Shown here piece after piece: positions 966 to 37,093 of a stretch of DNA of 39,092 bases. The stretch lies in sequence record PZ452614.1. One strand, given 5' to 3'. The notes under the pieces are model-generated. The model made no database searches. It had not been told where the DNA came from and saw nothing but the letters and a program-made list of their open reading frames with translations. The translations under genes were made by a program, and so were the position numbers. Every line of letters begins with the position of its first letter. Position 1 is the stretch's first letter. The stretch comes from a phage.

Positions 966-1160
966 TTAATTATTCTGCTGATTTTCTTCCATCTCGGCTT
1001 CTGCTGCCAGTGATTCAATTTTATCTGCGAATATTGCTGACAGTGTTGCAAATTCAGCATCAGTGACAGCGGGAATTGGAACAAACCTTATCCCGCTGTG
1101 TGCAAGCATGTTTGCAGTTTCAAGGCATTTCCTTAAATCTGCTGGTGATGCCCTGTTCAT
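966..1160 (-). CDS. Hypothetical small protein (64 aa) with acidic C-terminus
   Basis: Internal ATG at 1160 overlaps the methyltransferase stop (ATGA overlap); no recognisable family. Confidence 0.45.
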   Translation of the reverse strand: MNRASPADLRKCLETANMLAHSGIRFVPIPAVTDAEFATLSAIFADKIESLAAEAEMEENQQNN

Positions 1161-1807
1161 GCTGCACGCTCCTGCCCCTGGTTGTCTGTTGGTGACAGCG
1201 GAGCATTGCTGAATGCATTTGTTAATCCGCCAATATCCAACGCGTATCCAGGGTGTAGTTGCACTGCCGGGTCTTCGCACTGATTACCCCAAACATCGAA
1301 GCCATGAGACGACTGGCGGGCGAACAGTTCAATGCGAGAAACATCGCCTAACAATTGCACAAGTTTTTCACGAACGACATCTGGTTTTCTTGAATGCTCA
1401 AGCCGCGGTGCGGTAAATGACTGAACGATCCCTGCATTAATGCGCGTAGGTAGTTTTCCCTTTACCGCAAACAGGCAATCTTCACTATTGGCGCGAGTCA
1501 TGTGCCCCATACCCATAACCAGTTTATCTGGTTGTCGACTACCACATTTTATCCACGTGAAGCCCTTCATCGTCATCAGACGAAATCCCCAGGCTTCAAC
1601 AACTTTTAGTGCTTCGAGTGGTTGTGTTGGCACCCACCACATGGCCAACAGACAGTTTTCATCGGCCAAATCCCACGCAGGAAGGCGGCAGATATCCAGC
1701 ACACTCATAACCGGATATTTAAAACCGGCACCGCGATTACCATCTGCGGCTTTGTCCCGGTATACCCAGGGTGGATCTGCATAGATTAGTGTGTATTTCT
1801 TAGTCAT
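1157..1807 (-). CDS. DNA N6-adenine methyltransferase, MT-A70-like
   Basis: YADPPW motif near N-terminus; GGGGTGG Shine-Dalgarno before ATG at 1807; roughly 216 aa. Confidence 0.8.
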   Translation of the reverse strand: MTKKYTLIYADPPWVYRDKAADGNRGAGFKYPVMSVLDICRLPAWDLADENCLLAMWWVPTQPLEALKVVEAWGFRLMTMKGFTWIKCGSRQPDKLVMGMGHMTRANSEDCLFAVKGKLPTRINAGIVQSFTAPRLEHSRKPDVVREKLVQLLGDVSRIELFARQSSHGFDVWGNQCEDPAVQLHPGYALDIGGLTNAFSNAPLSPTDNQGQERAA

Positions 1808-2099
1808 AAACCACCCCACAACATCCTATGCCGCTATAGTCGCCACGGCGAAGGCCGTTACCTTTTGTGATACATTGGTCCCTGCGAACCGCGATCCTTG
1901 CACGTTCAACATCACCAGAAGCAACATCCATACACTGAAGCCAAAGGTGAGCGGCAATGCGGAACTGCCCTTTTTTCTCTCTTTCAATCGCGCGTTTTTC
2001 GATCTCTATCGCCGCAGGAGTAACGGCGACAATCTTTGACGGACTGCGCATTGAAACCTTATTCATGTGATATTTTTCAAGTCGGCTTAACTTTCTCAC
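1800..2099 (-). CDS. Hypothetical protein (99 aa)
   Basis: ORF with GTG start preceded by AGAGGG; overlaps methyltransferase start by 8 bp, suggesting co-translation. Confidence 0.45.
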   Translation of the reverse strand: MRKLSRLEKYHMNKVSMRSPSKIVAVTPAAIEIEKRAIEREKKGQFRIAAHLWLQCMDVASGDVERARIAVRRDQCITKGNGLRRGDYSGIGCCGVVYD

Positions 2100-2208
2100 T
2101 TAATCCAACCCTCTCTGAAAATTAATGCCAGCAGATAAAGCCATGCTGAAACAGAGGCCAGGAATAAGTACCATCCTGACCATTTGCTCCAGTGCCTTAG
2201 CAGCGCAC

Positions 2209-2457
2209 TCATGCAGCGTTGCTCACGGGACGATATACACGTTGCTGAACAGGAGGTTTTTTACCCTGGAACTCTGCCGGGCTTGCTGCCTGACGTTCAT
2301 CAAGCCAACGCTCAACTTCGTCACGGTTCCATGCGCAGCGTTTGTCAGTGATATACCAGCGTTTAGGAAATTCCCCTGCGCGCTCCATACGGTCGATAGT
2401 GCTCCATGACAGTGGCACCACCGCCAGGAGTTCCTTCTTACCTAATGCACCTTTCAT
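2209..2457 (-). CDS. AlpA/Vis-like HTH excisionase/regulator
   Basis: 82 aa; …VPLSWSTIDRMERAGEFPKRWYITDKRCAWNRDEVERWL… matches the AlpA pattern; Shine-Dalgarno AGAGAGG upstream. Confidence 0.8.
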   Translation of the reverse strand: MKGALGKKELLAVVPLSWSTIDRMERAGEFPKRWYITDKRCAWNRDEVERWLDERQAASPAEFQGKKPPVQQRVYRPVSNAA

Positions 2458-2506
2458 AAATACCTCTCTTGGTTGCAGTGCGGCGCGTGTGGCGCCGCGG
2501 TGGTGG

Positions 2507-4267
2507 TTACATAGATGTTTCGTTTAATTCTTCCCGACGAACGCTGTAAACGTCGGTGGCTTTTGCCAGCAGTTCGTCATCATCTGAAAGTTTTTGTGCA
2601 ATGTATTTGTAAGCCTTATCCAGTTCGGAGACAGTGCTGTAATTCATCGCTGCGCTGGTAAAGGCCATCAGCATTTCTTCTGGATCACGGCTATCCGCTT
2701 TACGAGTTTGCTCATCAGGCTTTTTCACTGGTTTAGCGTTGATCAGACTGTTCATTCCCGCAGCAGTGGTCGTTTGCGGAGTAATGTCTCGCTCAACGCG
2801 CGGTGCCGTTTCCTGTAATTCGTCTGGTGTGTAGACGCCCATGATTACGTCAGGACAGTGCAAGCGAGACCAGCGTTTTGTCGCAAGGTATGCGAGTTGT
2901 TGTTTCGGATCACTGGCCCAAAGTGTGGAGTTTCTTACCTGTGCTTGAGACAGCATTAACTCAAGCACTCGAGGTTGATCCTCGCCCTTCATGGTTGCCC
3001 ATACGCGAACACCGCAGCCTTCTTCGTCTTTTAGAGTCCAGCCTGGTGCGATATATGGATTGCCGTTTTTGGATGTTTTCTCAACAAACTTACCGATCAC
3101 GCGTTCCCACGGCCCGAACCACTCGTAGTTGATGCGATCTTTTGTTGGCGACATCGTTGAGATAACTGCGTTTACTAATTGGGCTTCATAACCTAGCGTG
3201 CCGTTCACAACATGGGTTTTCTGAGCCACGGCAAACGGGTTCATTCCCCACTGCGCAGCCTGCATTGCCACGGCCATGCAATCAGCTGGTTTCCCGGCGA
3301 GGTGCGCCGGTACCGTTACGCGGCTTTGCGCCATTACCTCGGCGAATTTCATCAGTTGGTTCAAGCCGTCTGGGCTGAAAATAGTTGCAGCAGTTCCAGC
3401 GATTGCTGTGTCTACTGGTGCGTTGATGTTTGCGATGTCGTTGCTCATATGTACATATCCTGTTTTGCGTGCCCACTCAGGGCGTTTAATGATTTCCACA
3501 CCGCCCCATTCATCATTTATGCGGCATTCGTGATAGGTATTCAGATCCCGGCGGAACAGAGCGTGCCCGGCATCGACATCCGGCGCATCCAGCTCGAACA
3601 CGCGTACCGGATACCGACCACAATCAATGCTTTCGCTCACGGCAAGAAAGAAAAAACCATGCGGCTGACCAGTAACCCTCATTGCGCCTTCGCGGTACAT
3701 TGCGTCCTGCACGTGGTAGCGGAATTCCTCGATGTGGCGTGCAAAACGGTCCATATCTGCAACCTTTTTCACGTCGACGATCACGTTGTGCTCGTTCAGC
3801 CATTTGTCTGGACGAATGCGGCACAACTCACCAGTATCTTCATCATTCCAGTACATTGATGCTTCGCAGAAACCAGGTGCTTCCAGCATCCAGCGTGCCG
3901 CCGGGTGAGCCATTGCGCTATCACGCATCAGCTCCAGTTTCCGCCACTGCTCGGCATCAAGTACCGTAATCCCCATATCCGCTACATCACGAAGAAATGC
4001 TTCTTCGTCAGCTTTACCTTGTTTCGTCCGACGATCGAACTTCGGTGAAACAATGAAGCGTTTGTCGAATTCTCCAGGCTCCAGAAGCAGACAGTGCAAT
4101 GCGGTTCCAATATCCAGTGCAGACTTTTTCTCTTCGTCTTCTGGTGCTGCCTGGACCCATTTAAGAAGCGACGGATTCTTGGCAACCATGTCCAGTTGCG
4201 ACTTACTCACGCCGTCACCGGCGTGGTAGTCTTCGTTGCTGATGTCGAAATAAATTCCCGGTTTCAT
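2507..4267 (-). CDS. PD-(D/E)XK exonuclease (RecE/Exo VIII-like N-terminal domain) fused to a C-terminal domain of uncertain identity, possibly RecT-like annealase
   Basis: N-terminus DISNEDYHAGDGVSKSQL… typical of exodeoxyribonuclease VIII PDDEXK-like proteins; continuous 586-aa ORF. Confidence 0.7.
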   Translation of the reverse strand: MKPGIYFDISNEDYHAGDGVSKSQLDMVAKNPSLLKWVQAAPEDEEKKSALDIGTALHCLLLEPGEFDKRFIVSPKFDRRTKQGKADEEAFLRDVADMGITVLDAEQWRKLELMRDSAMAHPAARWMLEAPGFCEASMYWNDEDTGELCRIRPDKWLNEHNVIVDVKKVADMDRFARHIEEFRYHVQDAMYREGAMRVTGQPHGFFFLAVSESIDCGRYPVRVFELDAPDVDAGHALFRRDLNTYHECRINDEWGGVEIIKRPEWARKTGYVHMSNDIANINAPVDTAIAGTAATIFSPDGLNQLMKFAEVMAQSRVTVPAHLAGKPADCMAVAMQAAQWGMNPFAVAQKTHVVNGTLGYEAQLVNAVISTMSPTKDRINYEWFGPWERVIGKFVEKTSKNGNPYIAPGWTLKDEEGCGVRVWATMKGEDQPRVLELMLSQAQVRNSTLWASDPKQQLAYLATKRWSRLHCPDVIMGVYTPDELQETAPRVERDITPQTTTAAGMNSLINAKPVKKPDEQTRKADSRDPEEMLMAFTSAAMNYSTVSELDKAYKYIAQKLSDDDELLAKATDVYSVRREELNETSM

Positions 4268-4563
4268 GCCGCGTCCCTCTGTCCATCAAGCTGATCCGCC
4301 AGATCCCAGCGGGCGATAATTGCCATTGCCTCTCGCCGATAGGCATCCATCAGTTCTTCGAACTCAGGGCTGTCTTTAGCAGCCTCCAGTACTTCCTGAC
4401 GAACGCCTTTGCCTGTTACAACGTCAAAAGTTGAGGACAGTTGATGAAGTCGGATGCTCTCAATCAGTTCAACTTGTCGGTCATATAGCTGTTCTGACAG
4501 GCGGTAGTCCTTGTCGAATGCCAGCATGATTTTTTGAAGATTTTTCTGCTGATTAACGTTCAT
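4264..4563 (-). CDS. Hypothetical protein (about 99 aa), first sizeable gene of the leftward early operon
   Basis: ATG at 4563 preceded by GGAGGG; stop overlaps exonuclease start (ATGA). Confidence 0.5.
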   Translation of the reverse strand: MNVNQQKNLQKIMLAFDKDYRLSEQLYDRQVELIESIRLHQLSSTFDVVTGKGVRQEVLEAAKDSPEFEELMDAYRREAMAIIARWDLADQLDGQRDAA

Positions 4564-4565
4564 TA

Positions 4566-4718
4566 TCAGCCCTCCCATATCTCGTTATCGTTGGCTACAT
4601 CGCGAGCTTCTTTGCTGACGAAAGCCCACTTAATGCCTTCCTGTAAGGTGCGGAACTTCCAGCTCATGAATCCGCATGCAGTAACGCAGTACCAACCGTT
4701 GATGATTTTCCACTGCAT
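4566..4718 (-). CDS. Possible 50-aa leader ORF immediately downstream of the leftward promoter
   Basis: ATG at 4718 to stop at 4566; weak ribosome-binding site; not in the supplied track (under 60 aa). Confidence 0.25.
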   Translation of the reverse strand: MQWKIINGWYCVTACGFMSWKFRTLQEGIKWAFVSKEARDVANDNEIWEG

Positions 4719-4737
4719 AACTTGTTACCTCGGTCTG

Positions 4738-4814
4738 TTACCGTTGAGGTAATAATTATGCGTATCTGGTTTGATGTCAATAGATATGAGTTAAAAAAAT
4801 TACCCGTTAGGTAA
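4738..4814 (-). promoter_or_regulatory. Leftward early promoter (PL-like) with two flanking TTACC-N5-GGTAA operators
   Basis: Minus-strand -35 TTGACA (4780..4775), 16-bp spacer, -10 TAATTA (4758..4753); operators at 4738..4752 and 4800..4814. Confidence 0.55.
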
Positions 4815-4826
4815 TCGAATAGGCAA

Positions 4827-4850
4827 TAAAAAAGCCGCCATAAGGCGGCT
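4827..4850 (-). terminator. Rho-independent terminator downstream of the repressor gene
   Basis: Stem agccgcc/ggcggct with loop ataa; U-run on the minus strand (plus A-run 4827..4833). Confidence 0.6.
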
Positions 4851-4871
4851 TACTTACTGAAAAATATGATT

Positions 4872-5456
4872 TTATTGTTTGTTTTTTTCGTTCTGGTTGA
4901 TGACAAATTCAATGTAACTTTCGATCTTTGCCTTCTCTGTTTCAGGTAACAATGCGTAGCGCGAGCGGTCATAGTTGATAGTCGCGGGGTCGTGCGGGTG
5001 AATCAGTAATTCATATCCGTGACGCCCAAATGCGGATGCAACATTCTCCAGGGTGGAAATGGAAACGCTGACCTCATTGTTTAACAGGCGGCTGATTGTT
5101 ACCTGGGCGACGCCGGATGCGCGGTGAAGTTTTCCCTGCGTTGAAAGGTCGCGGCTTTCGCTCATCCAGCGTTCCAGGTTGTGAGCCGCCAGTTGACCAA
5201 TGTCGCTTGGTCCGACAGGCTGAAAACCTTCCTGAGAAAGCGAGCGATCGATATCAAGCCAGTTACGGGGTTTATTGGCGGCAGCTTCAATTTTTCGCGC
5301 AACCTGGTCGCCGATAACCTTCTTGCCAAGAGCCCAGCGGTTTACCAGATTTGCCTGAGTTCCAAGTTTTTCTGCCATCCGCGTCTGAACACCATTGAAT
5401 TCACGGTCGATCAAGTCGTTGAGATTTTGCCTGCGGACGTCCTGGATACTTTTCAT
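4872..5456 (-). CDS. CI-like phage repressor with two HTH regions and no S24 peptidase domain
   Basis: 194 aa; HTH-like segments near residues 25-45 and 115-135; divergent from a Cro-like gene; located between the leftward and rightward operator clusters. Confidence 0.75.
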   Translation of the reverse strand: MKSIQDVRRQNLNDLIDREFNGVQTRMAEKLGTQANLVNRWALGKKVIGDQVARKIEAAANKPRNWLDIDRSLSQEGFQPVGPSDIGQLAAHNLERWMSESRDLSTQGKLHRASGVAQVTISRLLNNEVSVSISTLENVASAFGRHGYELLIHPHDPATINYDRSRYALLPETEKAKIESYIEFVINQNEKNKQ

Positions 5457-5511
5457 TTTCTGGAAAATCGCCTCATATATGAATCAGTAGATGATTCAAT
5501 TTAAAGCAATA

Positions 5512-5578
5512 TTACCCAACAGGTAAATGCACCCCATAGGTAACTATCCTTGATTTTTGTTACCTTATGGGTGAATAT
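5512..5578. promoter_or_regulatory. Rightward operator cluster (three TTACC-N5-GGTAA-type sites) overlapping a candidate PR
   Basis: Sites 5512..5526 (perfect), 5529..5543 (GCACC half), 5560..5574 (GGTGA half); -35 TTGATT 5550..5555 and -10 GAATAT 5573..5578. Confidence 0.6.
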
Positions 5579-5610
5579 TTATTATCTGAAATAAATATCA
5601 GGCAATAGCT

Positions 5611-5841
5611 ATGAGCGATAACGGACATTTCGATTTCAAAAAGCACTGGCTTGCACTTACTCCGGATGAGCGTGAAGCCTTCGCACAGGAAGCCGGAACG
5701 ACGAGTCACTATATCCAGACTCACTTAACAGGTAAGCGCAAAATGCCAGGTAAGGTATTGATGAATGGGCTTTTTAAAGCCTGTAAAACAAGACAATGGC
5801 TGCGCTCAAAAGCAGAACTGGCATACTTCTTCTACTCATGA
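5611..5841 (+). CDS. Cro-like small HTH regulator
   Basis: 76 aa; HTH …EAFAQEAGTTSHYIQTHLTGKRKMP…; divergent from the repressor. Confidence 0.6.
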   Translation: MSDNGHFDFKKHWLALTPDEREAFAQEAGTTSHYIQTHLTGKRKMPGKVLMNGLFKACKTRQWLRSKAELAYFFYS

Positions 5842-5862
5842 TATCCAGCCACAACCCTCTGT

Positions 5863-5886
5863 AGACCGCCATCCGGCGGTCTTTTC
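5863..5886 (+). terminator. Weak terminator-like hairpin after the Cro-like gene
   Basis: Stem agaccgcc/ggcggtct, loop atcc, short T-run. Confidence 0.4.
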
Positions 5887-5991
5887 ATATCTATTCGTAC
5901 CTCAAAGGTAATAAAAAACCAAATATGGTTGATCTTTTTTTTGTGTCAGCACAAAATAACCGTAATCCCAATACTAATAACAGGGCTTACC

Positions 5992-6192
5992 ATGGAAATC
6001 ATTACACGTATTGATGCCGCAAAGCGCGGACTTAAACGCTATTACACCGGAAAACAATGTAAGCACGGACATGACAGTGAACGCTGGGTTTACAACGGAC
6101 ACTGTGTTGAGTGCACCATGGAATCAAACCGTCGCATCAGGGCAGAGATTAAGCAGATCATGATTAATTCCTCCCCACAACACTCAAGCTGA
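5992..6192 (+). CDS. Small putative zinc-binding protein in the cII-equivalent position
   Basis: ATG at 5992 (MEIITR…); C-K-H-G-H … C-V-E-C motif; preceded by operator-like site 5897..5911. Confidence 0.45.
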   Translation: MEIITRIDAAKRGLKRYYTGKQCKHGHDSERWVYNGHCVECTMESNRRIRAEIKQIMINSSPQHSS

Positions 6193-6207
6193 TAGCGGAG
6201 ATTAATC

Positions 6208-7023
6208 ATGAGCAGACATGCAACAGATTGGGCTTGGGAGACAGATCCAGGCAGCTCATCATTAAAGCTCATACTGCTCTCGATGGCTGACAGAGCCGAT
6301 GAATATAACCTCTGCTACCCCAGCATAGAACGCCTCGTTAAAGACACTTGCCTGAATAAAAAAACCGTGCAGGCCGGGCTTATATCGCTCATGAAAATGG
6401 GGCTTATTTCAGATACCGGAGAGAGAAAGGGAGCGACAAAAAGAGTGCGGGTTTTCTCTCTTAATATAACCAAAAACGGGAACATTAAAGGCAACCGAGA
6501 GGGGGTCAATGAACCCGAAAACGGTAATGTTACCGAAAACGGGAATATACCCAAAAACGGGATGTTGAATGATCCCAAAAACGGGATGTTGAATGATCCC
6601 AAAAACGGGATCCAGAACCAGTCATATAACCAGTCATTTAACCAAGAGAGGGAGAGCAGGACAAAAAACGGGGATTCTGTGCATCATGACCCCGGCGCAA
6701 ACAACGCCGTGATGAATAACTTTGTTCCTCTTGGTGGGCCAGGGCAATTAGGCAAATTTGTCATGCATGAACAATGGCAGCCATCAGATGACTTTCTTCG
6801 GAAAAGCTCATTGCAGGGGATCTACCTGGACAGTCTGCCAACGGCACAGGAACTTGCAGAGTTCAGAATTTACTGGATGGCTGAGGGTAAGGCATACCAT
6901 CAGGCACAGTGGGAGCAGAAGCTGGCAAGGCGGCTGCAGATTAGCAGACAGAAGCAATCAACATTACCTGATAACAACGTTCCGCACTGGAACAGCCCTG
7001 AAGCATGGGAGGATTTCTTGTGA
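6208..7023 (+). CDS. Replication initiator (lambda O-like role) with N-terminal HTH; ori iterons embedded in the coding sequence
   Basis: N-terminal …LKLILLSMADRADEYNLCYPSIERLVKDTCLNKKTVQAGLISLMKMGLI…; internal tandem repeats; translationally coupled to the P-like gene. Confidence 0.7.
   Translation: MSRHATDWAWETDPGSSSLKLILLSMADRADEYNLCYPSIERLVKDTCLNKKTVQAGLISLMKMGLISDTGERKGATKRVRVFSLNITKNGNIKGNREGVNEPENGNVTENGNIPKNGMLNDPKNGMLNDPKNGIQNQSYNQSFNQERESRTKNGDSVHHDPGANNAVMNNFVPLGGPGQLGKFVMHEQWQPSDDFLRKSSLQGIYLDSLPTAQELAEFRIYWMAEGKAYHQAQWEQKLARRLQISRQKQSTLPDNNVPHWNSPEAWEDFL
6514..6610. repeat. Candidate origin of replication: five iterons CC(C/G)AAAA(A)CGG(G/T)
   Basis: Repeats start at 6514, 6533, 6550, 6574, 6598; the last three on a 24-bp period with identical cccaaaaacgggatgttgaatgat units. 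Confidence 0.65.
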
Positions 7024-7805
7024 ACAACGTTTTTACCGCGATACAAAACCGTGACGGAGAAGCCCTTTCTCGCATGTCAGGTTATGAGCATCAGTACACC
7101 AACAATGACAACGTGGTGAACATGTCAGCAGAGAGGCTTGTTGATGCCCTTTTCAAACAGCTGAAACAACTGTTTCCGGCGGCAGTGGTAACCAACCTGA
7201 AGACGCCAGAGCAGGAAGTTGCTGCAAAACAGCAGTGGATTGCTGCGTTTGCCGAAGGGGGGATCCGAACCCGTGAACAGGTTTCTGCTGGTATGCGCCA
7301 CGCCCGCGCCAGTGAGTCTCCGTTCTGGCCGTCGCCAGGGCAATTCATCAAGTGGTGTAAAGACAGCAAGATGGTTCTTGGCGTCACCATTGACGATGTG
7401 ATGGCGGAGTTTCACCGGTACAGCAAGGAAAAAAGTTTATATCCTGGTGGTCCCGAAAGATTCCCGTGGCGGCATCCGGTTATGTACTGGGTCGTATGTG
7501 ATACCCGCCGTGCAATGTATCAGCGCCAGCTTAGCGAGATTGAGGTTGAGAAACACGCGCGCAGGCTGCTCGATGATTGGGCGAAAAAGGTGGCTTCCGG
7601 ACAGCAGATACCCGATCCGGTGATCAGCATACAGGCAAAGCCAGAACCCATGAGTACGCCTCCGGACACAGGGAGAGATGTTTACCATCCACCAGGGCGA
7701 AGTTTCGGGTGCATGCCTAACGCCGCCACCCTGGGGGGAATAACACCGGCGCAGTGGCTGATGGAGGAATACAGGCGAGGAAAGGCAGCAGGATTTATCA
7801 AGTAA
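7005..7805 (+). CDS. Lambda P-like replication protein (DnaB helicase loader)
   Basis: …RQWIAAFAEGGIRTREQVSAGMRHARASESPFWPSPGQFIKWCKDS… closely parallels lambda P as recalled; alternative GTG start at 7020 has a better Shine-Dalgarno (GGGAGGA). Confidence 0.85.
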   Translation: MGGFLVNNVFTAIQNRDGEALSRMSGYEHQYTNNDNVVNMSAERLVDALFKQLKQLFPAAVVTNLKTPEQEVAAKQQWIAAFAEGGIRTREQVSAGMRHARASESPFWPSPGQFIKWCKDSKMVLGVTIDDVMAEFHRYSKEKSLYPGGPERFPWRHPVMYWVVCDTRRAMYQRQLSEIEVEKHARRLLDDWAKKVASGQQIPDPVISIQAKPEPMSTPPDTGRDVYHPPGRSFGCMPNAATLGGITPAQWLMEEYRRGKAAGFIK

Positions 7806-7842
7806 TACCAGCGCGATAGCGCATTTTTTTACGCCTCAATAG

Positions 7843-7919
7843 TTACCTAATGGGTAACAAAATATTCTTAGATCTATTGATTTCGTGTCTTATGTGGTTT
7901 TTAATTACCTTAGAGGTAA
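7843..7919 (+). promoter_or_regulatory. Regulatory region with two perfect TTACC-N5-GGTAA sites and an ATGTGGTT motif
   Basis: Sites 7843..7857 and 7905..7919; ATGTGGTT at 7892..7899; ATG of the next gene at 7923. Confidence 0.5.
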
Positions 7920-7922
7920 ATC

Positions 7923-8267
7923 ATGAGAAAACAGATACAGGCTCTTGGTCGACTCAAAACAGGCCAGATGAACAAAACAGAATCTGCGTATTGCCAGCAC
8001 CTTGAGCAGCGTAAACGTGCAGGGGAAGTCGCCTGGTATCGGTTCGAGGGTATCAAGCTGCGGCTGGCTGACAACACGTTTTATACGCCCGATTTCGCTG
8101 TGATGCTCGCCACCGGAGAGATGGAACTGCACGAAGTGAAAGGTTTCTGGACCGACGACGCCAGGGTGAAAACCAAAGTCGCCGCAGATCAGTATCCGTT
8201 CCGAATCATCGGGGTAACGGTTAAACCAAAGAAAGCAGGTGGTGGCTGGAATATCGAAGAGTTCTGA
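7923..8267 (+). CDS. DUF1064-like phage protein (putative nuclease family)
   Basis: 114 aa; …FYTPDFAVML…ELHEVKGFWTDDARVKTKV… pattern recalled for DUF1064. Confidence 0.5.
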   Translation: MRKQIQALGRLKTGQMNKTESAYCQHLEQRKRAGEVAWYRFEGIKLRLADNTFYTPDFAVMLATGEMELHEVKGFWTDDARVKTKVAADQYPFRIIGVTVKPKKAGGGWNIEEF

Positions 8268-32872: not shown

Positions 32873-35500
32873 ATGACGGTCTCAACCGAAGTTAACCACA
32901 ACGAATACACCGGTAACGGTGTTACGACATCATTTCCGTATACCTTTAGGGTTTTCAAGGAATCTGATCTGGTAGTACAGGTTGTTGACCTGAACGATAA
33001 CATCACTGTTCTGACGCTGGATACTGACTACACAGTAACCGGCGCAGGGGGATATGAAGGTGGTAATGTAATACTTGCAACAGCTCTGGCTAATGGTTAC
33101 CAGATTTCCATATCACGTGAACTGTCGGTTACGCAGGAAACAGATCTCCGTAACCAGGGGAAGTTCTTTGCTGAGGTGCATGAGGATGCGTTTGATAAGC
33201 TGACAATGTTGATTCAGCAGGTTCGTAGTTGGTTTAGTCTGGCGCTACGTAAGCCGTCATTTGTTGCTAACTATTACGACGCAATGGACAACTATATTCG
33301 TAACCTTCGTGACCCTGTAAGACCGCAGGATGCGGCTACAAAAAAATATGTTGATGGGGTCGCAGAAACAAACCTGAGCAGAACGCTACGAACCCCTGAG
33401 CCGATACCAGCATTGCCGGGAATTGAGCAACGTAAGAATAAGATTGTTGCAATGGATGATACTGGAAATCCGATAATGGTTTTGCCTGAATCTGGTTCGG
33501 CTACTGATGTAATGATCCAGTTAGCGGCAAATGATGGATTTAAGTTTATTGGTCAGTGCCCTGATATATTGACACTAAGAACAATAGAACCTGAAAAAAA
33601 TGGTCAAAGGATCACGTTGCGACAGCATACGATCGGAACTGGGCTTGGTGGAGGGGTATTCAGAGCTGTACTTGATGGAACTGGCTATACCGATGATGAT
33701 GGTGTTGTAATAAAAACAGCAGGTGGTTCTGTATGGTTACGGGTTAATGCAGATAAGGTTAATCCGTTTATGTTTGGGGCCACTGGCGTGGCTGATGATA
33801 CAGCAGCACTGCAAAAGATGCTTGAATGTGGCAGGGCGGCTGAGCTTGGCACAAATGTCTGGAAAGCATCTAATCTTGAGCTAAATAACAAGTCGTGTTC
33901 ACTATCTGGGTCTGGTCTACACGTTTCCAGGATAGAGCAAATATCTGGGGCAACAGGCGCGTTACTGACAATTACTCAGGATTGCAGCCTGATTTATTTG
34001 TCCGATTGTGGCCTGTATGGGGATGGAATAACTGCGGGAACAAGCGGGGTAACGATGGAGACAGGAAACCCAGGTGGGGCACCAAGCTATCCATTCAATA
34101 CCGCCCCTGACGTTCGTAGGGATCTTTACATTAGCAATGTTCACATTACAGGATTTGACGAGTTAGGATTTGATTATCCTGAAACGAATTTTTCCGTCTC
34201 AACGCATGGATTATTCATAAGAAACATTAAAAAAACCGGGGCTAAGATCGGAACTACCGATTTTACATGGACAAACCTTCAAATTGATACGTGTGGGCAG
34301 GAATGCTTAGTGCTTGATGGTGCTGGTAATTGCAGAATTATAGGTGCCAAATTAATTTGGGCTGGTTCAGAAAATGAAACACCATATTCAGGATTACGTA
34401 TTTCTAATTCACAAAATGTAAACATGACAGGAGTTGAGTTACAGGACTGTGCATACGATGGATTGTATATTAAAAATTCAACTGTTGCTATCAGTGGGTT
34501 GAATACTAACAGAAATAGTGCATCATCAAATCTGTCATACCATAATATGGTTTTTGAAAACAGTATAGTAACTGTAGATGGTTATGTTTGCCGTAACTAT
34601 GCTGCTACATCGCTATATGATCTAAATTCACAAGCCGGAAATGTGAGGTGTATTGGTTCCGATAGTACCGTATTGATAAATGGTATTTACGAGTCAGAAG
34701 TAAACAGCGAACGACTCATGGGTGACAATAATCTTATTCAGCCATATTCTGGTGATTTAATAATAAATGGCCTAAAAAACTATTATACATATACAGGAAG
34801 CGTAAAAAACAATATTCCTACATTTGACGGAGTCGTTACAACCGCAACATATGTAAGCGCTCCTTCGATACTAGGGCAAGGAAACATGCTTAAGTTAACG
34901 CAATCAAACAAGGATAAGTTATTATTTTCTGATAAAGTATCGAGACATGGGTGTACAATCGGCCTTGTTCTAATCCCGTCATTTACGGGTGCAACAACTA
35001 TGACAGCTTTCACTCTGGGGAGTGGATATTCGCCCTCTGGAAACTCTGCTGTTATGCAATTTATAGTTAACTCCAGTGGTGTGCAGACTATAGCAATATT
35101 ATTATCCGGTGATGGTATAACTCAAACGTTAACAAGCGATCTGACAACGGAGCAAGCGTTAGCTTCAGGAGGCGTATATCATTTTGCGATGGGATTCGCT
35201 CCAGGCCGATTATGGTGGTCTATTATTGATATAAATACCGGAAGGCGTATACGACGGGCGTACAGACAACCAGATCTTCACGCCGCATTTAATAGCATAT
35301 TCAACAGCGGAACATCTTCTATCACCGCATTTTCAGGACCATTAGCAGGTGATATTGCATGTGAAGGGGCAGGTTCGCATGTTTATGTTGGCGGTTTCTC
35401 ATCTGAGTCAGACTACGCAGCGAGCAGAATGTACGGATTATTTACCCCAGTAGACCTGGATAAACAATACTCATTCCGCACGCTGAACGGAAATATTTAA
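32873..35500 (+). CDS. Tailspike protein
   Basis: 875 aa; conserved-looking N-terminal domain, then repetitive Gly/Asn/Ser-rich beta-helix-like C-terminal part with lower GC. Confidence 0.8.
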   Translation: MTVSTEVNHNEYTGNGVTTSFPYTFRVFKESDLVVQVVDLNDNITVLTLDTDYTVTGAGGYEGGNVILATALANGYQISISRELSVTQETDLRNQGKFFAEVHEDAFDKLTMLIQQVRSWFSLALRKPSFVANYYDAMDNYIRNLRDPVRPQDAATKKYVDGVAETNLSRTLRTPEPIPALPGIEQRKNKIVAMDDTGNPIMVLPESGSATDVMIQLAANDGFKFIGQCPDILTLRTIEPEKNGQRITLRQHTIGTGLGGGVFRAVLDGTGYTDDDGVVIKTAGGSVWLRVNADKVNPFMFGATGVADDTAALQKMLECGRAAELGTNVWKASNLELNNKSCSLSGSGLHVSRIEQISGATGALLTITQDCSLIYLSDCGLYGDGITAGTSGVTMETGNPGGAPSYPFNTAPDVRRDLYISNVHITGFDELGFDYPETNFSVSTHGLFIRNIKKTGAKIGTTDFTWTNLQIDTCGQECLVLDGAGNCRIIGAKLIWAGSENETPYSGLRISNSQNVNMTGVELQDCAYDGLYIKNSTVAISGLNTNRNSASSNLSYHNMVFENSIVTVDGYVCRNYAATSLYDLNSQAGNVRCIGSDSTVLINGIYESEVNSERLMGDNNLIQPYSGDLIINGLKNYYTYTGSVKNNIPTFDGVVTTATYVSAPSILGQGNMLKLTQSNKDKLLFSDKVSRHGCTIGLVLIPSFTGATTMTAFTLGSGYSPSGNSAVMQFIVNSSGVQTIAILLSGDGITQTLTSDLTTEQALASGGVYHFAMGFAPGRLWWSIIDINTGRRIRRAYRQPDLHAAFNSIFNSGTSSITAFSGPLAGDIACEGAGSHVYVGGFSSESDYAASRMYGLFTPVDLDKQYSFRTLNGNI

Positions 35501-35507
35501 TATAGTT

Positions 35508-35532
35508 GGTTGTCATATTACACGTGACAACC
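35508..35532. terminator. Hairpin between convergent tailspike and acyltransferase genes
   Basis: 8-bp stem ggttgtca/tgacaacc, 9-nt loop, AT-rich flanks on both sides. Confidence 0.45.
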
Positions 35533-36529
35533 CAAATTTTCTTAAAAAAACTACGATGGCTAATGAAATTAAGAACACGATAAAAGAAAGAGGAATAACG
35601 ATAAACATCTCTGGATGGATCGAATATTTATCAAGCAAAAATCTCCTGAGTATGTCAATGATTAATGGATGGACAAGATAAATCCCTAGTGTGCAGGGAG
35701 AAATAAATTTCACTATGTGTAATATCGTTTTGTTTTTAACAGGGGTGTTTATCATGAACACCATAAAACATATTGCAGACATGGCAATAAACAAAGACGA
35801 GTTATCATAAAACATCTGGTTTACCGGTCCCCTGTAAACAGAAATATTCTTTGTTATAAAAGCGGTCGCAAACGTACATGCAGTCAGCATAATGGTTAAC
35901 ATTATTTTTGTTGAGTTTGTCATGTTAACTTGATTATCTAAAATTATCTTCCCTAGAAGCAAGTACACAGCAAGGCTGGAAAATATACTAACTTGAAATA
36001 GATTGTTGATATTTAAATTCAATCCAAGATATACATTTAATAAACTAAAGAATAAAAGAAGCATCCATAACCATACTAAAATTACAACATCTATTTTATT
36101 TGAGTGTAAATAGAATTTACTAAGTAATGGCATAATGATAACGAATCCAATGGCTGCATATAAGTACCACATATGATAGAATATCTGCGATCGAAAAAAT
36201 AAATTAAAAAATGATTTCACATCTATGGGGAAACTATTTACATGTGAACGATATAAGTAATATATCGCCGACCAGAAAAGTAGAATAATGAATAGCCGAT
36301 TTGCTCGTTTTAATGACGAATTCATATTTGTACTTTCTTTAATAAGCAAAGCCCCAGAAATCATAATGAATAACGGTACAGATATTCTGGTAAAAGATTC
36401 TATTATATTTAATATATCCCATCCTGATGAGCCTGTTTCATTCATACCTATAATTACAGAATGAAGAACAACCACCAAAAAGCAAGCAGCCACTCTAATC
36501 AACTCAATATTCAAATTCTTATCTTTCAT
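35513..36529 (-). CDS. Acyltransferase family 3 membrane protein (putative O-antigen acetylase, serotype conversion)
   Basis: 338 aa, multi-pass hydrophobic; N-terminal …ELIRVAACFLVVVLH… motif; markedly low GC. Confidence 0.85.
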   Translation of the reverse strand: MKDKNLNIELIRVAACFLVVVLHSVIIGMNETGSSGWDILNIIESFTRISVPLFIMISGALLIKESTNMNSSLKRANRLFIILLFWSAIYYLYRSHVNSFPIDVKSFFNLFFRSQIFYHMWYLYAAIGFVIIMPLLSKFYLHSNKIDVVILVWLWMLLLFFSLLNVYLGLNLNINNLFQVSIFSSLAVYLLLGKIILDNQVNMTNSTKIMLTIMLTACTFATAFITKNISVYRGPVNQMFYDNSSLFIAMSAICFMVFMINTPVKNKTILHIVKFISPCTLGIYLVHPLIIDILRRFLLDKYSIHPEMFIVIPLSFIVFLISLAIVVFLRKFGLSRVI

Positions 36530-36568
36530 GACCAGGTACGTTAAGCTGTATTATTTCAATAAATAATA

Positions 36569-36639
36569 TCACCTATCGGGTAATTTCGATAGGATCAATT
36601 CTAAGTTATTTTAACCATATATGGTTTATTGTGTATAAT
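36569..36639. promoter_or_regulatory. Divergent control region: operator-like site near the acyltransferase start and an extended -10 promoter for the lysis genes
   Basis: TCACC-TATCG-GGTAA 36569..36583; ATATGGTT 36621..36628; TGTGTATAAT 36630..36639. Confidence 0.5.
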
Positions 36640-36688
36640 GGACTCACCAACTAAGGGGGTTCTTTATGCACAGTAAACGGTGGTAATT

Positions 36689-37093
36689 ATGTCAGCAGGG
36701 CTAACCAGTGAGTCATTAAATCAGTGGCTTAGCATGGGGTCTCTTGCTGCAGTAATTGCAGGTGTTCCGCCAGAAGTTGCGCTTGGTGCTCTGGCTGGTG
36801 CGGTAATCTTTGTTACCTCGGCAGTTGAGTATCCAATCCGTCGCCGCGTGCTCCTGTCGTTGCTCAGCTTCCTCTGCGGCCTTCTCTTCTACAAACCCAC
36901 AGCGTCGATCCTTATCGGCTTTGCCAGCCTGATCCCTACCATCACTCAGGACTCTTTCGAGAAAGGGATCGTCTTCTCTGCTGGCGCATTCGTGTCAGCA
37001 ATAGTCGCAGTGCGCATTGGCATCTGGCTCTATCACCGTTCTGACAATCCACGCGAGTTAATTCCGGGGAGAAAAGACGATGACAACTCATGA
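36689..37093 (+). CDS. Holin (putative)
   Basis: Hydrophobic segments; ATG at 36689 after GGTGG; first gene of the lysis cassette. Confidence 0.6.
   Translation: MSAGLTSESLNQWLSMGSLAAVIAGVPPEVALGALAGAVIFVTSAVEYPIRRRVLLSLLSFLCGLLFYKPTASILIGFASLIPTITQDSFEKGIVFSAGAFVSAIVAVRIGIWLYHRSDNPRELIPGRKDDDNS

Follow-up and report, generated by a model that had tools for sequence, protein, structure and literature searches.

A one-base insertion probably joins neighbouring recE-like and recT genes in the recET open reading frame of phage phiV10

A stretch of 39,092 nt of DNA (the window) was analysed. As a whole, the window is the phiV10 genome in a rotated form with its first base inside the integrase gene, and its minus strand contains one ATG-initiated open reading frame (ORF) of 586 amino acids at 2507..4267 according to the ORF listing (table 1). 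The encoded chain has a mass of about 66.1 kDa. In a nucleotide comparison, this region is 100% identical to phiV10 (DQ126339.2/NC_007804.2) and also 100% identical to the Escherichia coli O157 typing phages 9 and 10 (TP9 and TP10). The window differs from DQ126339.2 by one copy fewer of a 12-nt tandem repeat in a DnaT-like gene, and TP9 is the same as the window in this respect. The GenBank entry labels PhiV10p37 as [quoted passage not shown]. This annotation predates the present analysis and already names the fusion, so the presence of a RecE–RecT fusion in phiV10 is already known and not new. The names given to the fusion vary: RefSeq uses only “RecT-like” and Prokka only “recE”.

The exonuclease and annealase coding regions are adjacent and co-oriented within a phage early operon, with the exonuclease first, which is the arrangement of a RecET or Red-alpha-beta type module. 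The neighbours in the operon (AlpA downstream of the module, gp38/gp39 and the repressor upstream) are common to the relatives, and both gene order and operon context match the relatives and epsilon15. The overlap that links gp38 to recET is the same coupling device as the one that originally joined recE to recT. A scan for promoters and terminators across positions 2000-5700 returned fewer sites than shuffled controls and nothing of note inside the gene. In a 2016 paper from the Applegate laboratory, “gene 37 (recET)” was swapped for a kan-nluc cassette and the resulting reporter phage works (PMC5021930), therefore gp37 is dispensable in the laboratory for lysogeny, induction and infection.

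Table 1. Features of the recET region, with positions in the window
Feature	Position	Strand	Evidence
phiV10 gp37 “recET”, fused ORF	2507..4267	minus	ORF listing and GenBank annotation
ATGA stop/start overlap of upstream gp38 (4264..4578) with recET	4264..4267	minus	ORF listing, annotation, sequence
RecE-like nuclease part, residues 1-268	3464..4267	minus	Pfam, NCBIfam, 3H4R alignment, in-silico deletion
H58, conserved catalytic His	4094..4096	minus	sequence
Catalytic motif RPD(154)...D(165)-V-K(167) of a PD-(D/E)XK nuclease	3767..3808	minus	3H4R alignment
AAAA run holding one extra A (AAA in relatives)	3463..3466	minus	alignment, in-silico deletion
Five frameshift-derived codons T-G-Y-V-H, residues 269-273, in place of the ancestral RecE C-terminus Q-D-M-Y-I-stop	3449..3463	minus	in-silico deletion
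AGGA Shine-Dalgarno-like element of ancestral recT, 9 nt before the M274 ATG	3458..3461	minus	sequence; RBS of phage Tyrion annotated at the same place
Ancestral recE stop TGA within the ATGA overlap, not in frame in phiV10	3445..3447	minus	sequence
recT coding sequence in full (M274-M586 and stop codon), with the 313 codons found in relatives	2507..3448	minus	Pfam, in-silico deletion, relatives
Predicted C-terminal three-helix bundle, residues about 529-585 (RecT 256-312), pLDDT about 91	2513..2683	minus	AF2 model

The initial annotation described a single 586-aa ORF with a two-part layout, and the coordinates, the length and two non-overlapping Pfam domains agree with this description. Its assignment of the N-terminal 270 or so residues to an Exo VIII/PD-(D/E)XK nuclease is borne out by three matches. 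Residues 21-254 (window 3506..4207) match the Pfam family PF12684 (PDDEXK-like DUF3799; E 6.9e-21, 75.5 bits with a cutoff of 26), and a sequence search of the PDB aligned residues 12-268 to chain positions 5-261 of 265 of 3H4R, the nuclease domain of RecE (E 4.7e-76). The nuclease fold extends to about residue 268, where the alignment with 3H4R stops. Within that alignment RecE has the same residues in the RPD and DVK columns, and H58, D154, D165 and K167 are all present in gp37. The third match is to NCBIfam exodeoxyribonuclease VIII (NF007259), where residues 1-268 correspond to positions 606-873 of the 877-position model; at 303.3 bits the match stays below the equivalog cutoff of 1269, and the N-terminal region of roughly 600 amino acids is absent. 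The confinement of the match to positions 606-873, far under the cutoff, argues for a minimal RecE-type nuclease domain, and these alignments place the N-terminal half in the RecE nuclease-domain family and not among Exo VIII equivalogs.

The RecT-type annealase that the initial annotation had proposed, as a weak call, for the C-terminal half turned out to be much firmer in the profile scan. Residues 310-490 (window 2798..3340) match Pfam PF03837 (RecT) with an E value of 8.5e-44 and 149.9 bits (cutoff 24), covering model positions 2-188 of 198, and the separate counterparts in the relatives carry the annotation RecT family recombinase. Judged by this strong match, the C-terminal half is a RecT-family member. 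Structure modelling with AF2 (AlphaFold) was carried out for the RecT half only; the MAFFT alignment of the fusion had misplaced long RecE homologues onto the RecT half. The model has a mean pLDDT of 69.6, with RecT residues 1-18 below 50 (disordered), a core at about residues 20-200, a further disordered stretch and the predicted helix bundle at the C-terminus. A Foldseek search of the PDB with this model returned annealases as the top two matches, the Red-beta NTD 7UJL (probability 0.99, E 5e-3) and Sak 8QE9, with low TM-scores of 0.2-0.37, so that the structural match is specific for annealases but weak. The PDB sequence search with the fused protein matched RecE only and no RecT structure.

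The annealase is normally encoded by a separate gene downstream of the exonuclease, as the initial annotation had stated, and this is the organization found in the relatives. The closest of them, in which two genes are annotated, have 2300 bases where the query has 2301. In the prophage of E. coli OkiPb01680 (99.9% identity) and in phage EC.W1-9 (98% identity), a gene for a 273-aa PD-(D/E)XK nuclease overlaps a gene for a 313-aa RecT by 4 nt. Phage Tyrion carries the same annotated pair of a 273-aa recE-like and a 313-aa recT gene, and the same recE-like gene of 273 aa is present in Salmonella phage 65FD next to a recT of 293 aa. The OkiPb01680 prophage differs from phiV10 by an indel and two SNPs across 2301 nt. 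In the alignment, the junction reads CGCAAAACAGG in phiV10 and typing phage 9 versus CGCAAACAGG in the relatives, and a single base is the only local difference. The extra A is located 14 nt ahead of the recT ATG, and up to K268 the reading frame is identical to that of the 273-aa recE-like gene of the relatives. Removal of one A in silico yields a 273-aa RecE-like ORF that ends in EWARKQDMYI-stop and a 313-codon RecT ORF, with an ATGA overlap between them; with the extra A, the translation is ...EWARK-TGYVH-MSNDIANIN..., that is, five new residues and then the entire RecT. The recT frame upstream of its ATG is open for just 27 nt (3.3% of recE) and the AAA run falls within this stretch, so that only a +1 (or -2) indel there gives such a fusion. 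The AGGA element is downstream of the insertion and therefore intact, and internal initiation of free RecT is possible. A comparison of the region with the nearest split prophage revealed no secondary disabling mutations.

The distribution of the two alleles was determined with nucleotide probes and a peptide that span the junction. An 81-nt probe found a match in 224 of 5426 complete E. coli genomes, none of which is identical to the 4-A form (0/224); 223 of the matches are at 98.8%, each listed one being 80 bases long, which corresponds to a 1-nt gap. Among phages, the same probe is identical only in the phiV10, TP9 and TP10 records, and 21 others contain the shorter form with two genes. An exact 24-mer of the 4-A form has no match in IMG/VR (2.9 M contigs) and none in the JGI metagenomes (241 M records). 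The 23-mer of the 3-A form is found in at least 120 IMG/VR contigs, and the 120 contigs listed are all split, with a RecE-like protein ending in ARKQDMY[V/I/L/A]-stop, the ATGA overlap and a separate RecT of 283-319 aa. In a tblastn search, a 121-aa junction-spanning peptide was encoded in one frame in only four phiV10/TP9/TP10 records; the remaining 31 phage records covering it, with identities as low as 61% in Erwinia and Yersinia phages, need two frames to encode it. Overall, phages of E. coli, Salmonella, Enterobacter, Klebsiella, Erwinia and Yersinia keep the split form over a range of protein identity from 99.9% to about 62%. This distribution points to the split state as ancestral and essentially universal and to the fusion as derived, recent and private to the phiV10/typing-phage lineage. 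The view that an exonuclease–annealase fusion would be unusual thus holds, the fusion being private to one phage lineage.

A highly probable explanation for these observations is that gp37 arose by a recent one-base insertion (AAA to AAAA) that merged the recE-like gene with recT, in a module that we infer still to work as an exonuclease–annealase recombinase. The insertion is located in the last codons of the 273-codon recE-like gene, ahead of the adjacent 313-codon recT. The ATGA overlap in the relatives implies that recT is in the -1 frame and translationally coupled to recE, and the extra A would let ribosomes leave the recE frame ahead of its stop and continue in the recT frame. Because the recT frame is without a stop in the intervening codons, the expected product is one 586-aa chain that consists of the RecE fold (1-268), TGYVH and the entire RecT. 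Some free RecT may arise from the preserved internal Shine-Dalgarno element and ATG, and free RecE-like protein would presumably not be made from the phiV10 allele. Since gp37 is non-essential, the mutation most likely reached fixation in the phiV10/typing-phage stock as a neutral or slightly deleterious change and would not represent an adapted fusion.

The predicted action of the fused protein is that the RecE-like ring resects the 5' strand at a dsDNA end, leaving a 3' overhang that RecT coats and anneals, with the RecT core tethered to the nuclease by a flexible segment of about 25-40 residues that would comprise the 5 new residues and the N-terminus of RecT, which is naturally disordered. 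Proteins of the RecE family assemble into a toroidal tetramer, and in lambda the exonuclease and the annealase form a roughly 1:1 complex via the C-terminal domain of the annealase, which also binds SSB (PMC11611040). By analogy with this roughly 1:1 complex, a covalent 1:1 link at the opposite terminus of RecT, the N-terminus, is sterically plausible. The loss of stop-start coupling, together with a nuclease ring (tetramer) that is dragged onto each filament-forming RecT protomer, could equally reduce activity. Retention of the dsDNA-recombination function by the fused protein is graded as an even prospect at best and perhaps a distinctly poorer one. It is a tentative and rather unlikely proposition that the phiV10 allele represents a natural experiment in which a minimal RecE nuclease domain, with its C-terminus tethered to the N-terminus of the cognate RecT, still works as a single-chain 66-kDa exonuclease–annealase recombinase. 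Taken by its sequence and distribution, the fusion appears to be a one-base, lineage-private accident and not an evolved architecture.

It is quite possible, though not probable, that the frameshift is instead an incipient loss of function, in which a dispensable module is damaged (no free RecE, no coupling, steric interference) and the long ORF simply reflects the unavoidable reading of the intact recT frame downstream. Any +1 insertion within the final 27 nt of recE opens a fusion ORF automatically, gp37 is non-essential in the laboratory, and decades of typing-phage propagation on recombination-proficient hosts, which can be assumed for these phages, would fit such a decay. However, neither folded domain loses a residue, the last 5 RecE residues alone change and these lie past the fold aligned to 3H4R, the internal Shine-Dalgarno element and ATG of RecT are intact, and secondary disabling mutations are absent. 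Decay and the preferred explanation of a merged module that still works share the same origin and differ only on retained function.

The initial annotation had also raised the prospect that the ORF is split in close relatives by a stop that is missing here through sequencing error. Close relatives are indeed split and the one extra A makes the difference here, but an attribution of this base to error does not agree with the sequencing records. A sequencing or assembly error, with phiV10 truly containing separate recE and recT genes, would be consistent with a difference that is a 1-nt change in homopolymer length absent from every relative, and faulty assemblies do yield false junction-spanning ORFs (e.g., P0213, see below). 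A 4-nt homopolymer, however, is not error-prone on Illumina. The AAAA run and the 586-aa ORF are present in both TP9 and TP10, as in the separately deposited phiV10 record (version 2), and the window, which is distinct from DQ126339.2 by its repeat copy number, has AAAA as well. TP9 was sequenced on an Illumina MiSeq (TGAC) and TP10 on an Illumina GAII (AHVLA), and both are de novo Velvet assemblies (PMC4429339). The occurrence of AAAA in independent Illumina de novo assemblies indicates a real mutation and makes an artefact very unlikely. The carriers are all from one typing-phage lineage, which indicates a single mutational event, and with three sequenced carriers from one typing-phage set the independent sequencing proves the sequence and not an independent origin; it cannot discriminate between an origin of the mutation in nature and one in the laboratory.

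Equally improbable is an evolved bifunctional enzyme, a single-chain exonuclease–annealase kept by selection. The roughly 1:1 complex of the lambda proteins (PMC11611040), the available flexible tether and two domains that both look intact are compatible with such an enzyme. Against it, the allele is private to one phage stock while the split form is widely conserved, gp37 is dispensable, and the region is only 2 SNPs away from a split relative, which leaves no time for adaptation. Nor did searches for other RecE–RecT fusions return a full-length two-domain protein. Among the best 120 clusters of a search of 5.8 billion proteins, none covers >55% of the query or has both Pfam domains, and the best 150 matches of an exhaustive phmmer search over 1.84 billion representatives are single-domain proteins with no full-length RecE–RecT fusion among them, P0213 being the sole junction-spanning exception. 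A two-domain relative would outrank single-domain matches in phmmer, so its absence from the best 150 counts. These searches reach the identity range of this clade, and much more distant RecE-like/RecT-like pairs lie beyond it. Among the relatives, the fused architecture was found in none of 224 E. coli genomes, none of the at least 120 IMG/VR contigs and none of 31 further phage records. No conserved fused architecture was thus recovered, and for this reason gp37 is not a member of any conserved RecE–RecT fusion family.

Three candidates for further fusions were rejected. P0213 (187 aa, query 206-386) follows RecE up to residue 263, continues for about 60 residues in an alternative frame (identical to the window ORF 3282..3476) and then enters the RecT frame; it is an artefact from a contig with several indels. 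A single-piece tblastn match in Vibrio phage PvVp04 corresponds to two separate annotated genes that are 9 nt apart, and in the Salmonella phages 65FD and 66FD the gene named “putative RecET” encodes RecE only (273 aa) and lies beside a separate recT. The fused protein matches phrog_561 end to end, which could point to further fused members there, although phmmer and tblastn turned up none; the likeliest reason for the match is that the phiV10 protein itself is probably a member. The ETfinder paper makes no mention of a fused RecET.

Programmed ribosomal frameshifting or transcriptional slippage, by which fused and separate products would be normal across the relatives, would suit a recT in the -1 frame with an A-run near the junction but is excluded because the junction of the relatives (GCA CGC AAA CAG, or C GCA AAC AGG around the run) is without an X XXY YYZ slippery heptamer and the phiV10 fusion is hard-coded in the DNA and needs no recoding, and runs of 3-4 A's are far too short for transcriptional slippage.

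As a private one-base allele, the fusion does not define a protein family, and annotation transfer from gp37 misleads. The phiV10 case shows that ATGA-coupled neighbours can be fused by one indel in a 27-nt target. An active fused protein would provide a compact single-chain recombineering tool with a natural linker, and if a single-chain recombinase proves true, loading of the annealase need not proceed solely through its C-terminal domain. The importance for biology at large is small, and the known use of gp37 is as a dispensable insertion site for reporter phages.

Among known systems, the other Uetakevirus phages and E. coli prophages share the same genes, gene order and early-left operon context with phiV10, at nucleotide identities from 99.9% down to 80%. 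They differ in the AAA at the junction, which gives two polypeptides of 273 aa and 293-313 aa with an ATGA overlap, where phiV10 has AAAA. The RecE/RecT pair of the E. coli Rac prophage is similar in that the nuclease is homologous to RecE residues ~606-866 with identical RPD...DVK columns, the partner belongs to the RecT family and the exonuclease gene is upstream. Rac RecE has an N-terminal region of about 600 residues that is absent from gp37, whereas the covalent joining of the two activities is specific to gp37. Among engineered tandem constructs for genome editing, miniRecET and miniRecTE bring the nuclease domain of RecE together with RecT in a single construct, in either order, and are reported to be active in mammalian cells (PMC12825301). 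In contrast to gp37 these constructs are artificial, are built from the Rac proteins and rely on MCP/dCas9 recruitment, and the passages that describe them do not explicitly call them a single covalent chain (PMC12825301). Finally, Red-alpha (Exo) and Red-beta of lambda resemble the predicted gp37 in that the exonuclease, a ring with 5'-3' polarity, loads its annealase partner onto the 3' overhang at a stoichiometry of about 1:1 (PMC11611040). Exo of lambda is trimeric and belongs to a different PD-(D/E)XK subfamily, and its contact with the annealase is non-covalent and made via the C-terminal domain of the annealase, whereas the tether in gp37 would be located at the annealase N-terminus.

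Within the genus, the recombination module has a mosaic make-up. A single RecE-like gene, together with its ATGA junction, is paired with differing recT alleles in Salmonella phage 65FD and the IMG/VR loci. Among the IMG/VR matches listed (L009-L128), the recT product is 313 aa long in 46 loci and 293 aa in 40, and the remaining alleles have other lengths within a range of 283 to 319 aa. Phage epsilon15 instead carries a lambda-Exo-type exonuclease and a 340-aa RecT, with 9 nt between the two genes. The varied recT partners of the same RecE-like gene and the different module of epsilon15 suggest that recombination breakpoints lie at or near the exonuclease-recT gene junction.

The junction region also appears to have received an insertion in four Salmonella phages (SPN1S, SPC32H, SPC32N, and SPNIS2). 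In these phages, the match to the junction peptide, a 121-aa query spanning the RecE-RecT boundary, is spread over 763 nt, as against the usual stretch of ~360 nt, and lies over an annotated HNH endonuclease gene. These features suggest an insertion of the homing-endonuclease type that either separates recE from recT or lies beside them.

The genes of the early-left operon are linked in a chain by short overlaps (see table), so that neighboring genes are a single indel short of fusion.

Features of the early-left operon, gp43 and the low-GC island of the window
Feature	Window position	Strand	Remark
ATGA overlap, gp38/recET	4264-4267	-	
ATGA overlap, ancestral recE/recT	3445-3448	-	
Further gene boundaries, early-left operon	e.g., 1800-1819, 1157-1280	-	
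gp43, DnaT-like primosomal protein	6208..7023 (ORF)		Tandem repeat at ~6590-6640
Low-GC island	34001-37000		phiV10 record ~22.1-25.1 kb; 3' part of tail fibre gene and oac
oac, O-acetyltransferase	~35513-36529		Inside low-GC island

The window departs from the GenBank phiV10 genome (DQ126339.2) only in the copy number of a 12-nt tandem unit (AACCAGTCATAT/AACCAGTCATTT) in gp43, which is present in two copies in the window and in three copies in the GenBank genome. The change is in-frame, amounts to 4 aa, and falls inside a repetitive N/Q-rich segment; typing phage 9 matches the window exactly at this repeat. Elsewhere, the GC content drops to 0.37-0.39 across the low-GC island compared with ~0.50 in the rest of the window. 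The island takes in the tail fibre gene at its receptor-binding end, along with the gene for the O-antigen acetyltransferase (superinfection immunity), a pattern consistent with a horizontal gain of host-range and serotype-conversion cargo.

Public annotations of the phiV10 fusion (window 2507..4267) and its homologs are inconsistent and misleading. The fusion is named only as a "RecT-like ssDNA annealing protein" in RefSeq and only as "recE exodeoxyribonuclease 8" by Prokka in typing phages 9 and 10. The "putative RecET" of phages 65FD and 66FD is a 273-aa RecE-only protein, the nuclease of EC.W1-9 is annotated as "RecT protein", and the RecT of TL-2011b and SPN9TCW as "enterohemolysin".

A public metagenome-derived protein of 187 aa (P0213) was considered as a RecE-RecT junction fragment and rejected, as it consists of RecE followed by ~60 residues in an alternative frame and then RecT. 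It derives from a contig with several indels, a caution that seeming RecE-RecT fusions can be assembly artefacts. The Vibrio phage vB_Vp_PvVp04_M (record 3900-8156) encodes a "putative RecE" of 910 aa and, directly after it, a 188-aa hypothetical protein whose C-terminus is similar to the last part of the RecE nuclease domain; a RecT-like gene is located 9 nt beyond. The RecE gene of this phage may have been divided into two ORFs; such a split would be the reverse of phiV10, where two genes were fused.
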